NCBI GenBank assembly: GCA_964016885.1
Contig: OZ024743.1
Location: forward strand, 349,246,001 to 349,310,000
Direction of reading: 5' to 3'
Source of the DNA: Eledone cirrhosa
Lineage: Eukaryota
Length of the DNA: 64,000 bases
Shown here in pieces: positions 30,651 through 52,693 of the stretch. Positions within the stretch are counted from its first letter, which is position 1. Each line of letters opens with the position of its first letter. The notes beneath the pieces were generated by a model. It was given only the letters and a program-made list of their open reading frames with translations, made no database searches and was not told where the DNA came from. The translations under genes and the position numbers were made by a program.

Positions 30651-31367
30651 TATATAATAAATAATTTAACATATACTGTGTATAAATAGATATTATATAA
30701 CTTTTATTTTACTACATCTATATATATACTAGACCACCCGTGACCCGTTGCGTCACGTTCACTTCAAAATATCTTTTTAAAATCACGTTAATTTAAAAAT
30801 AATTTTAAAAAAAGTAAAATATAGATAGACATGTATATAATGTGAAATGAAACTGGAAGGCCCATATATATACGTGTGTGTATGTATATATATATAAACG
30901 TGTGTGTTTGTATACGTATATATATATATATTCATGTATGTGTGTGTGTGTATATATGGGAGTGGGTGTCTGCGATCTATATAGACTGGGCATAGACACA
31001 CATATATATACACACACTCACACACACACACACACATATATATATATATATATATATATATATATATATATATAAAAACAAATAACGAAACGAAATTAAA
31101 TTTCGTTTCGTTTGTAACTCACTTTTGTATGACTGACGCTTAAACAATTAAGTTAAAGATGTACATCCATATATGTATACTGAAATACTAGTATGTATAT
31201 GAATACACACACGTATACATATGTAGATGTACCAAGTGTTTTCACTGGTCACTTTACTGTGAGTGGCCAGCTATTCTGTATGTAAACACACAGACAAACC
31301 GGTTTTTAGAGTCATACTGGTTTTTGAGGAAACACCTTTCCTCTATTCTCCAGAAAGCCAGACAAGG

Positions 31368-31412
31368 AATATTGAACTAGTTTCGTTGTTGTTACAACTC
31401 ATCAGCAATATT
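31368..31412 (-). ncRNA. Minimal type I hammerhead ribozyme (family C, unit 1)
   Basis: Minus strand: AATATTG CTGATGA GTTGT-aaca-ACAAC GAA ACTAGT T^ CAATATT; 7-bp helix I, palindromic helix III. Confidence 0.88.
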
Positions 31413-31834
31413 TACCTATCTTCCGGCCTCTCTAGAGAATCGTAAAAGCACATATCGTTATATGCTTTTTCTATGAAAATTAGTAGTGGGCAGACTAATT
31501 TGCATAGAGTGTGAGTAAGTACCGGTTCAACGGAGACGATAAAAACAAATAACGAAACGAAATTAAATTTCGTTTCGTTTGTAACTCACTTTTGTATGAC
31601 TGACGCTTAAACAATTAAGTTAAAGATGTACATCCATATATGTATACTGAAATACTAGTATGTATATGAATACACACACGTATACATATGTAGATGTACC
31701 AAGATTTTTCACTGGTCACTTTACTGTGAGTGGCCAGCTATTCTGTATGTAAACACACAGACAAACCGGTTTTTAGAGTCATACTGGTTTTTGAGGAAAC
31801 ACCTTTCCTCTATTCTCCAGAAAGCCAGACAAGG

Positions 31835-31879
31835 AATATTGAACTAGTTTCGTTGTTGTTACAACTCATCAGCAATATT
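31835..31879 (-). ncRNA. Minimal type I hammerhead ribozyme (family C, unit 2)
   Basis: Identical to 31368-31412, 467 bp away. Confidence 0.88.
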
Positions 31880-33295
31880 TACCTATCTTCCGGCCTCTCT
31901 AGAGAATCGTAAAAGCACATATCGTTATATGCTTTTTCTATGAAAATTAGTAGTGGGCAGACTAATTTGCATAGAGTGTGAGTAAGTACCGGTTCAACGG
32001 AGACGATAAAAACAAATAACGAAACGAAATTAAATTTCGAAATTAAATTTCGAAATTAAATGAGTTGTAACAACAACGAAACTAGTTCAATATTCCTTGT
32101 CTGGCTTTCTGGAGAATAGAGGAAAGGTGTTTCCTCAAAAACCAGTATGACTCTAAAAACCGGTTTGTCTGTGTGTTTACATACAGAATAGCTGGCCACT
32201 CACAGTAAAGTGACCAGTGAAAAAACTTGGTACATCTACATATGTATACGTGTGTGTATTCATATACATACTAGTATTTCAGTATACATATATGGATGTA
32301 CATCTTTAACTTAATTGTTTATATATATATATATATATATATATATATATATATATATATATATATATATACAAGCTCTCTCTTCCATACTTCTCTGTCT
32401 CATCTCCATCTCTCTATGTCACTCCTTCAAATTACTCTCTCACAACCACTATCTCTTTCTCTCTATTATTCTCTCTCTCTCTCTCTCTCTCTCTCTCTCT
32501 CTCTCTCTCTCTCTCTCTCTCTCTCTCTCTCTCTCTCTCTCTCTCTCTCTCTCTCTACCTCTGTTGATGAAGGTACCCACAAGAGGAGTGACATAGAGAG
32601 ATTGACAAAAAAAAGTAAAATATAGATTGACATGTATATAATATCTCTCTCTCTTTCTCTCTCTCTCTCTCTCTATATATATATATATATATATATGTAT
32701 ATATATATATATATATATATATATATATATATATATATATATATATATATATATATATATATATATATATATATATATATATTAGAGAGAGAGAGAGAGG
32801 GAGAGAGAGAGAGAGAGAGAGAGAGAGAGAGAGAGAGAGAGAGAGAGAGAGAGGGAGAGAGATATTATATACATGTCTATCTATATTTTACTTTTTTTAA
32901 ATTATTTTTAAATTAACGTGATTTTAAGTCACTCTCTCTCTCTACCTCTGTTCATGAAGGTACCCTATCTCGGGAACCCGTGTTTCGATATACGCGAAAC
33001 TTGTTTCATTCTATTTGTATTCCCATTTCAGGGGCAACCTCTTTTCAAAGTATTATGCGTCCTTATATTCCCCTTAAAATAATTTTTAAATAATTAAAAT
33101 ATACACAGACATGTATATAATGTGAAATGAAACTGCAAGGCCCATATATATATATATATATATATATATATATATATATATATATATATATATATATACG
33201 TTTGTGTATGTACATATATATCAATGTGTGTGTTTGTATACATATATATATATGTATGTGTGTATGTATGTATATATATATATATCTATCTATCT

Positions 33296-50542: not shown

Positions 50543-50609
50543 TTTTATTATGCGCATTTCAAAAACAAACATCATCATGCAATAATATTTGTGTTTTCAT
50601 CAGATAAAA
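50543..50609 (-). ncRNA. Minimal hammerhead ribozyme (family A)
   Basis: TTTTAT CTGATGA aaacacaaatattattgcatgatgatgtttgttttt GAAA T-gcgc-A TA^ ATAAAA. Confidence 0.82.
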
Positions 50610-51898
50610 CAGGAGAACATGATATGAAGGCTAAAAAACACTTGAGGATAGTGCAGTTTTAAATCAACATATGAAAAGTGGTTTTAGATTGATGTGTGAT
50701 ATTGGGAAAAATATTTTATTTAGAGAGGGGGGGGGTGGAAAGGATGAAAAAGGGGAGGAGATGAGAGGGAGAGATGGGTGATAGAGAGAAAGAGATAGTT
50801 TTTATAACTGAGAGGAGATATATTGTTTTACATAGAGAGGTTGAAAACCGTTGGAAGATAATGTATAAATTAAAAGAATTTGAAAATTAACGAGGAAAAA
50901 ATATTTTATTTAGGGAGGGGGGGTGAAAAAAGGGGGAGGAGATGAGAGTGAAGGTGGAGATGGAGAGATGGGTGATAGAGAGAAAGAGATAGTTTTTATA
51001 ACTGAGAAAAAGATATATTGTTTTACATAGAGAGGTTGAGAACCGTTGGAAGATAATGTATAAATTAAAGGAATTTGAAAATTAACGAGGGAATTTATGT
51101 ATGAAGATAGAGAGAAAAAAATAATAATTGTGGATGAATATTCTAACGTCAAAAAAAGTGTATGTTGATAAGTATTGTGGCAATTTCAAAATTAACGAAG
51201 AGAAAAATTATATTATTATTATATTATTATATTATATTATTTTTCTCAAATCCTTCTACACACAAACCTTAATAATTTTTCTCTTCGTTAATTTTGAAAT
51301 TGCCACAATACTTATAAACATACACTTTTTTTGACGTTAGAATATTCATCCACAATTATTATTTTTTTCTCTCTATCTTCATACATAAATTCCCTTCGTT
51401 AATTTTCAAATTCCTTTAATTTATACATTATCTTCCAACGGTTCTCAACCTCTCTATGTAAAACAATATATCTTTTTCTCAGTTATAAAAACTATCTCTT
51501 TCTCTCTATCACCCATCTCTCCATCTCCACCTTCACTCTCATCTCCTCCCCCTTTTTTCATCCTTTCCACCCCCACCCCCCCTCCCTAAATAAAATATTT
51601 TTTCCTCGTTAATTTTCAAATTCTTTTAATTTATACATTATCTTCCAACGGTTTTCAACCTCTCTATGTAAAACAATATATCTCCTCTCAGTTATAAAAA
51701 CTATCTCTTTCTCTCTATCACCCATCTCTCCCTCTCATCTCCTCCCCTTTTTCATCCTTTCCACCCCCCCCCCCACCCCCCTCTCTAAATAAAATATTTT
51801 TCCCAATATCACACATCAATCTAAAACCACTTTTCATATGTTGATTTAAAACTGCACTATCCACAAGTGTTTTTTAGCCTTCATATCATGTTCTCCTG

Positions 51899-51965
51899 TT
51901 TTATCTGATGAAAACACAAATATTATTGCATGATGATGTTTGTTTTTGAAATGCGCATAATAAAA
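51899..51965 (+). ncRNA. Minimal hammerhead ribozyme (family A)
   Basis: Same motif on the + strand; palindromic GCGC loop on a 2-bp helix III. Confidence 0.82.
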
Positions 51966-52693
51966 TACATGGAACTCCTTTAACCATCTTTTGATCTTAT
52001 ATTATATATATATATATATATGTGTGTGTGTGTGTGTGTGTGTGTATATACAGTATATATATATATAACTAATAGAATAGGTTCTTTTAAATGATGTTAT
52101 ATCGATATTCGCATATTTGTGTAAAACATTTCAAAACACTAAAATGTTTTGTATTTATTCTCTGTAAAATGGTCCTGTTAACTGCATGCTCAAATATAGT
52201 CAATTTCGGTAAATCACATAACATTTGCGACATTTTGAGTAAACACCTGCAAATGTAATAGAATAAACTATTTATTAATTTGATTTGTATAACGAAATAA
52301 AATACGAGTCACCAATCTTTTCTACTTACCGGTCATAAAAGTGTCATGAGCATTAATGCTATTCATATCCCTATTAATACTATTCATATATGGTCTAGGA
52401 CCATTGCCATAACGATGTACCATTTAATTGCAAGTTTTGATTTTGTAATTATTTAGTAGGTATTTCTTAATCTGGTGTTGGATGGATGCAATTTTATTTT
52501 CGCATATATTAACTTATTATTCAAGATATTTACACATGGTTTCTTCAAACATGTATTTGAACTTGGAAATATTTGAAACTTTTACTTTATAATTTCACGT
52601 TGAAATATGTTGAAATATCTCTCATAAGTATTGATCAATAACTTGCCCACAATCTACAATTTAATATCCAATGTATTTAAATATATTTCTCAG

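Follow-up and report, generated by a model that had tools for sequence, protein, structure and literature searches.

The window analysed here, a 64,000-nucleotide stretch of the 3.0-Gb genome of Eledone cirrhosa (G000:C4:349246001-349310000), contains six insertions in which two copies of a hammerhead-bearing repeat face away from each other, with their outer ends in or beside TA-rich microsatellite. How do the five repeat families involved, labelled A, B, C, D and E, come to share this geometry, and which enzyme puts them there? An earlier note on this DNA had treated all six insertions as a single non-coding mobile RNA system dependent on Penelope-like elements (PLEs). Our analysis divides them: the A, B and E insertions are, by the sequence motifs of their longer relatives, truncated copies of coding PLEs of the Hydra clade, and only C and D are non-coding, predicted tandem hammerhead retrozymes. 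The reverse transcriptase (RT)-endonuclease (EN) of a Hydra-type PLE probably makes the footprint shared by all five families, with C and D borrowing it.

Paired insertions in TA tracts share one footprint

Self-BLAST of the window recovered inverted arms at all six loci, the left arm on the minus strand and the right arm on the plus strand, confirming that the head-to-head, outward-facing structures described in the earlier note are real. The arms are 99.6% identical in C, 99.8% in D, 94% in A, 88% in B, 90.5% in E2 and 78% in E1. From left to right, the insertions are:

31072..32321, both strands: C retrozyme insertion (minus arm 31072-32039, plus arm 32060-32321)
34051..35847, both strands: B insertion, head-to-head 3' untranslated region (UTR) fragments of an older Hydra PLE
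36013..37172, both strands: E1 insertion, head-to-head 3' ends of Hydra PLE family E
37372..38909, both strands: D retrozyme insertion (minus arm 37372-38009, plus arm 38009-38909)
45266..45492, both strands: E2 insertion, a minimal E copy (short end 45266, long end 45492)
50417..52010, both strands: A insertion, head-to-head 3' UTR fragments of the autonomous Hydra PLE family A

A descriptor of the type I hammerhead (HHR) gave 10 matches at a score of at least 12 in the window and none in each of 30 shuffles. D contributed three of these matches (one minus, two plus), C two on the minus strand, A one in each arm and B one in its plus arm; the last two fall outside the six loci. Rfam HH9 matched two C copies only (E 6e-6, under the gathering score). 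Matches to Rfam microRNAs in the window were rejected as noise from TA/GT microsatellite. The HHR cores lie at 31405(-) and 31872(-) in C, 34251(-) and 35740(+) in B (the former has a decayed stem II and fails the descriptor), 37718(-), 38150(+) and 38622(+) in D, and 50603(-) and 51905(+) in A, while E1 has the variant core CAGA(A/G)GA at 36082(-) and 37020(+). In the C plus arm the HHR is 5'-truncated, starting with ATGAG at 32060.

Each family has two fixed 3' ends (unit positions 234 and 303 in C, 257 and 316 in D), the longer of which includes a tail of 81 nt in A, 92 nt in B, 80 nt in E and 59-92 nt across the families. In the C insertion, the minus arm spans about 2 units of 467 nt and has the long end (position 303), the plus arm has the short end (position 234), and a 20-nt templated repeat lies between them. 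In D, the minus arm carries the long end (position 316) and the plus arm, about 2 units of 472 nt, the short end (257). The long end of A is at 50417, with an 81-nt tail (50417-50497), and its short end at 52010; that of B is at 34051, with a 92-nt tail (34051-34142), and its short end at 35847; E1 has its short end at 36013 and its long end at about 37170. The bounds given in the earlier note left the tails out (A starts at 50417, B at 34051, E1 at 36013), and the structures are asymmetric.

The same features recur outside the window. Among the first 100 exact matches listed per family for C, D, A and E, which all lie on contig 1, hammerhead neighbours within 3 kb were outward in 62 cases, inward in 3 and tandem in 92 (p 2.5e-15), an outward excess of the kind the earlier note had anticipated. 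Its expectation of (TA)n enrichment was also borne out: with (TA)3 within 16 nt of a classified end as the criterion, 294 of 327 ends are TA-positive (C 41/44, D 75/78, A 64/69, B 44/48, E 70/88), against a random background of 8-10%. A target-site duplication is undefinable in (TA)n. A further rule, absent from the earlier note, concerns the ends: one long and one short end are combined in 110 of the 121 outward pairs with both ends classified (p 5e-22 versus 50%; the exceptions are 4 long/long and 7 short/short), in 38 of 41 pairs of the C/D subset, and in all six window insertions. Of the 29 C chains, 11 with one arm and 3 without a classification stay outside the end count, as do 22 and 11, respectively, of the 59 D chains. 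Also omitted are 9 outward pairs of A, B and E in which an end could not be classified.

The two arms apparently share a template variant and end independently

In 15 of 17 C cases, the two arms of an insertion resemble each other more than they resemble any other insertion (median divergence 0.4% versus 3.1%), and in D the corresponding medians are 1.3% and 4.6%. One 9.2-kb C insertion consists of 22 pieces of a single 468-nt variant with one variable site. Both primings apparently took place at different fixed sites on the same template variant.

The inner ends of the arms follow a different pattern. In 38 C/D insertions the further-reaching arm is the long-ended one in 21 and the short-ended one in 17, and the arms mostly begin at different unit positions (e.g., 270/440 and 151/301). 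Overlaps at the junctions are mostly 1-5 nt, with palindrome hotspots at CATATG in A, TTC-W-GAA in E and ATGTACAT in one C. In E2, both arms are cut at this interrupted palindrome TTC-W-GAA within the HHR core. Contigs of sequencing run X1, which may be the source sample, contain at least 12 different left-arm-to-right-arm joints at depths of 12-38, and none of the sequencing-run records compared with the D locus of the window spans it or shows an empty allele.

Families A, B and E derive from coding elements with Hydra-clade motifs

Families A, B and E are the 3' ends of PLEs whose longer copies carry RT and GIY-YIG open reading frames (ORFs) and which belong, judged by motifs, to the Hydra clade. 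Exact copies of their HHR words number 7976 (A), 17379 (E) and 110 (B) genome-wide. Long A copies have frames of 740-820 codons and long E copies of 500-645 codons; the A protein (799 aa) contains YRDD and LIYEC/YFG, the E protein YRDD and IVYKC/YIG, and the two are 38% identical. Both show YRDD, DKT, a CxCx5C linker, a C-terminal GIY-YIG-like motif, CxxC and CxH, with no CCHH as judged by eye, and the RWK position reads RLRWT/RWI in A copies and RLRWR in E. Since Pfam found no family (sequence searches of Pfam and PDB with the A and E proteins gave no match), the Hydra assignment of A and E rests on these motifs. Copies of B share up to 1.5 kb of upstream DNA, which includes the remnant of a C-terminal region with about 50% identity to A; one B locus (L342) shows the linker, CxxC and CxH. 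The HHR is canonical in A and B. In E, 70 of 75 fetched copies have the core CAGAAGA, and the CTGAAGA at 45333 in E2 arises from the junction itself.

The Hydra DKT..N.Y DNA motif has 6821 matches in this genome versus 72 for the control, and more than 20 distinct sequence variants occur among the 100 matches listed, on contig 1, which suggests a large radiation of Hydra-like elements here.

On this sequence evidence, insertions A, B, E1 and E2 are ordinary truncated copies of autonomous Hydra PLEs, new members of a known clade with a geometry that is, as such, already known. The idea of a single non-coding system for all six insertions thus gives way to one in which only C and D are non-coding. 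That none of the insertions encodes protein holds for the copies in question and fails for the families, as longer A, B and E copies have RT/EN ORFs and a decayed coding E element lies in the window itself. Nor are the families unrelated, given the similarity of the A and E proteins and that of C and D described below. Two further copies in the window belong to these families:

22727..25568, no strand assigned: decayed, nearly full-length E element that retains remnants of RT/EN ORFs and has its 5' arm (23058 to 22727) inverted
40457..40658, no strand assigned: additional A insertion, with a 30-nt tail-only inverted arm and a 175-nt short arm

Many A insertions elsewhere (L063-L083, L243-L248) are minis of about 430 bp with both arms cut at the same CATATG, some bearing extra bases at the junction. 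A short pseudo-long terminal repeat (pLTR) transcript with its 5' end at this site, or else a strong stop for the RT, could account for these minis. A sixth HHR family (58104-58300(-), core at 58185) sits between TA tracts; loci L291 and L297 carry a match to its 3' end in the DNA that follows their Hydra-motif ORFs.

Families C and D are predicted non-coding tandem retrozymes

Families C and D are predicted from their sequence to be non-coding tandem hammerhead retrozymes with a type I HHR in each unit. The units, of 467 nt in C and 472 nt in D, are colinear along their entire length (319 of 531 columns identical), and no complex ORF of at least 120 aa was found over either. Their circular folds are predicted to be strongly self-paired, with z scores of -10.8 (C) and -9.5 (D) versus 30 dinucleotide shuffles. 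Exact HHR matches number 5130 for C and 10672 for D genome-wide, and the arrays reach 22-24 pieces divided by a single inversion. The elements of the unit within the window are:

31072..31140, minus strand: C tail, about 69 nt long and confined to one arm, containing a 13-bp hairpin and a U5 run
31352..31423, minus strand: C minimal type I hammerhead with palindromic ACUAGU stem III (second copy 31819-31890)
31457..31509, minus strand: C U6-promoter-like block, TATGCAAATTAG with a TATA-like word at +42, recurring 467 nt rightward
38061..38110, plus strand: D U6-promoter-like block (further copies at about 38533(+) and 37807(-))

The footprint marks PLE enzymes as the likely helper of the C/D retrozymes.

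In two of the sampled insertions (L003 and L215), each flank holds an inward-facing copy of a different repeat that ends in (GAT)n; this repeat likewise collects at TA tracts.

A U6-like promoter candidate in C and D

In this genome, genes for U6 (with three promoter types), U6atac and RNase MRP have ATG(C/G)(A/T)AAT at -76 to -78 and TATA at -30. The block of C and D places TATGCAAATTAG 89-100 nt before the HHR; C matches one U6 upstream region in 14 of 14 positions, and the motif was not found in U2 upstream regions. Among copies, the block varies by 0-1.8%, versus 2.7-6.8% in the body and spacers, and sense-strand T4 runs are absent between unit positions 410 and 294 in both families, which fits transcription by RNA polymerase III (Pol III), if weakly. 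Three observations count against a promoter: the TATA-like word stands at +42 (TATATA in D, only ATATAA in C) versus +46 to +48 in five Pol III promoters, the 12-mer also occurs twice, antisense, in the UTR of another family, and Pol III would have to read through T runs at 295-395, terminators that would need read-through to yield full C/D units. We therefore put the block forward tentatively, and with slightly more doubt than conviction, as a candidate functional Pol III type 3 (U6-type) promoter.

Tandem gene arrays were noted for U6 (period about 1.8 kb; G000:C19:31.78-31.84 Mb) and U2 (about 2.2 kb; G000:C3:307.35-307.45 Mb). In some U6 units, a short interspersed element (SINE) replaces the upstream motif.

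A model of two-ended priming and its alternatives

In the reading that we favour, the Hydra-type enzyme would cut both strands of (TA)n and prime two complementary DNAs (cDNAs). Their two start sites would lie within a single RNA, separated by 59-92 nt, one target end using the distal site and the other end the proximal site of the same molecule. Priming would be simultaneous (a dimeric enzyme is a prediction only, in the portions of Frangieh 2024 used here), with the trailing RT displacing the leading cDNA. Both RTs would stop independently, and the cDNA 3' ends would join by short complementarity or microhomology, most easily at palindromes. Families A, B and E would encode, or once have encoded, the enzyme, with a Hydra family helping C and D, whose circular or multimeric template would give arrays on both arms; the C/D RNAs would be transcribed from their own U6-like promoter and their ribozyme would be active. 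The earlier note had already proposed that the two 3' ends left by a break in (TA)n both act as primers and that 5'-truncated cDNAs are then joined, and this part gains support from the orientation, the independent arm lengths, the junction microhomology and the in vitro work of Frangieh 2024 (PMC11167929). There, the protein of PAc, a Poseidon PLE of Anolis, cut AT-rich DNA on both strands, extended each strand and began copying at two internal RNA sites, one on either side of the tail. Dependence on PLEs, which had also been proposed, is likewise supported as an inference.

A more far-reaching version of this model, which we regard as doubtful, would make C and D self-sufficient parasite RNAs, each unit with a U6-type promoter, a hammerhead and a PLE-type tail. 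These RNAs would circularise, a Hydra RT dimer would make two simultaneous rolling-circle copies of one circle from a (TA)n break, giving a head-to-head array of up to 10 kb per event, and the long/short pairing would record how every inverted Penelope insertion forms.

Several observations weigh against a Hydra-type enzyme acting by two-ended priming at all five families. The samples beyond the window come mostly from the first 70 Mb of one contig, and the long A and E loci were selected as outward pairs, not by end type. A sensitive scan of the fetched A/B/E loci gave 15 inward against 89 outward neighbours, although most of the inward ones look like adjacent insertions, given their TA-run flanks. 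Not every copy follows the two-armed plan of the six window loci: BLAST shows no second arm in 11 of the 29 C chains or in 22 of the 59 D chains (in some of the one-armed chains an inverted micro-arm of about 11-15 nt is visible in the flank). Opposite arms are closest to each other in only 8 of 21 D insertions, and conversion between arms after insertion is compatible with the shared variants. One C array (L110) has a 3-unit periodic variant in one arm only, which suggests some later local expansion. Many A/B/E junctions are near-symmetric at palindromes, as antisense self-priming predicts (the "symmetric" class is loose, since BLAST bridges spacers, and serves qualitatively only). Finally, none of 40 loci with the Hydra DKT motif, a partial sample, has a C/D-like 3' end, so that no helper family of C and D emerged among them.

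The near-symmetric junctions are what a fold-back mechanism would produce, in which, as Arkhipova 2013 proposed, a single cDNA or antisense transcript folds over at a palindrome and serves as its own template. Such self-priming would fit the junction hotspots at palindromes and account automatically for a variant shared between arms. However, C/D arms usually start at different positions and either may be the longer by kilobases (21 versus 17), the copy of a short-ended cDNA cannot acquire the tail in the non-tandem A, B and E, and tail-only inverted arms exist, so that we consider fold-back improbable. Two independent opposite insertions into one (TA)n tract, or assembly chimeras, seem far-fetched by comparison with the data. 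TA tracts do gather neighbours, one short/short D case has arms 4.3% apart, and, for a chimera, there is the window D locus that no sequencing-run record spans; yet the junctions have no TA tract between the arms, the arms share variants, and independent insertion would give equal numbers of inward pairs and no long/short rule. Old arms have diverged by 12-22%, unlike a read chimera, and the arm-to-arm joints in X1 contigs also speak against this artefact.

The remaining two alternatives concern C and D only and are unlikely rather than remote. Their helper could be a non-Hydra PLE (Neptune or Naiad) or an unsampled Hydra family, which would leave the geometry unchanged. The 40 Hydra loci without a C/D-like terminus and the further PLE-type RT/GIY-YIG remnants in the window fit such a helper, as do the habits of Naiads, which prefer (TA)n and show inverted copies and tails, and of Neptune-like PLEs, which favour TA too; both of these also count against a Hydra-specific assignment. 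On the other side, the D HHR has the CTGATGAT..TGAA form that is frequent in listed Hydra HHRs (a by-eye comparison), Hydra-motif elements are abundant here, and long tails are common to C/D and A/B/E. It is also conceivable, if doubtful in our judgement, that the C/D arrays are satellites grown by unequal crossover after a short PLE-type seed, in which case long arrays would be uninformative about a circular template. The period-3 variant in L110 is in keeping with such growth, and Li et al. 2026, in the parts used here, favour local amplification; against it, units of the three longest arrays differ as much within an arm as between arms, and each of the two arms is a multimer of equal unit length. 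Between these possibilities, borrowing of a Hydra-type enzyme by C and D remains the explanation that we prefer.

Other features of the window

Other HHR-bearing fragments occur at 8182(-), 6921-7065 and 60240-60416; they comprise one like the HHR of locus L283, an arm of old, B-like sequence and an A copy that has a single arm and stops at the CATATG hotspot. The E1 spacer (36276-36807) does not align to a young E element, starts with a 47-nt palindrome and shows a 77% match to 1214-1677. TA-adjacent palindromes in which no HHR was detected are found at 17441-17565, 32608-32898 and 40733-40849, and inverted pairs of a common SINE-like repeat of about 190 nt at 41228-41881, 28030-29357 and 55248-57076. 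Decayed PLE-type RT elements, possible alternative helpers, lie at 20189-22835(-) and 25974-27305(+); the former has Pfam RVT_1 and GIY-YIG matches.

Comparison with known systems

For the Hydra clade, the portions of Craig et al. 2021 (PMC8557442) compared here give DKT, CxCx5C, CxxC, CxH and RWK as features, list in the supplement (TA)n as the target of almost every Hydra family, list an Octopus family as well, and describe an inverted 5'-truncated copy of Penelope-13_HM with HHRs on both strands; the formation of inverted PLE termini is called unresolved there. In the part of Arkhipova 2013 consulted, head-to-head copies are the commonest form and the junctions are palindromic. Families A, B and E resemble Hydra PLEs such as Hydra-1_Obim and Penelope-13_HM in their C-terminal GIY-YIG, the HHR in the 3' end, the (TA)n targets and the inverted shape. 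They differ, as far as those sources extend, in having RWT (A) or RWR (E) instead of RWK, a length of 3.2-3.9 kb versus less than 3 kb, and tails of 80-92 nt where PLE tails are given as 30-40 nt. The E hammerhead has a U4A core, unlike the listed Hydra HHRs, and by eye the A, B and E HHRs differ from that of Hydra-1_Obim; rare HHR core variants can stay active, according to the portion of Perreault 2011 used. Compared with the Hydra PLE listing, the 6821 motif matches point to many families here.

Families C and D, in turn, are similar to metazoan non-LTR retrozymes (Cervera and de la Pena 2020, PMC7229834; Li et al. 2026, bioRxiv 10.64898/2026.07.22.740005; both drawn on in part) in being non-coding tandem repeats of low GC content with a type I HHR, a predicted self-paired circle fold and thousands of copies. 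Unlike those, the C/D arrays are split head-to-head and have fixed long and short ends in (TA)n, with units of 467-472 nt and minimal HHRs. The words "inverted", "opposite" and "microsatellite" are absent from the main text of Cervera and de la Pena 2020, and "head-to-head" and "orientation" from that of Li et al. 2026, as far as these texts were compared and with both supplements outside the comparison. In the literature on retrozymes and PLEs (with Repbase and most subscription journals outside the search) we found no head-to-head retrozyme arrays with PLE-type paired ends, and those of C and D are apparently undescribed, whereas the shape of A, B and E is published. Newt satellite 2 (Coats 1994, as cited in the portion of PMC2220036 used) also joins an HHR tandem repeat to an internal promoter of small nuclear RNA type, for which C and D have a candidate; the motif of C and D differs from it in matching Pol III genes (U6, U6atac, MRP) and not U2.

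The mover of animal retrozymes has previously been argued from co-occurrence and pLTR homology. A footprint identical to that of autonomous PLEs of the same genome is more direct evidence and points to an RNA segment to test, and the young A copies with open frames of 740-820 codons, together with the C/D RNAs, form a ready test system.

In L1 twin priming, both 3' ends of the target serve as primers on a single RNA, and microhomology joins the products, leaving a 5' inversion. In the model favoured here, the insertions would share with it the two target ends, the single RNA and the microhomology joining; the arms of L1, however, derive from separate RNA segments and its second site varies, whereas here the arms overlap and both starts are fixed.

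With PAc (PMC11167929, in the portions compared), the common points are two start sites that bracket the tail and an AT-rich target, both strands of which PAc cuts and extends. PAc belongs to a different clade, its result was obtained in vitro only, and those portions of the account do not state a one-long-one-short pairing per insertion, a link to inversion or a link to retrozymes. The long/short rule, the shared template and the independent arm lengths found here tie the two-site, two-strand in vitro result of PAc to inversion and argue against pure self-priming.

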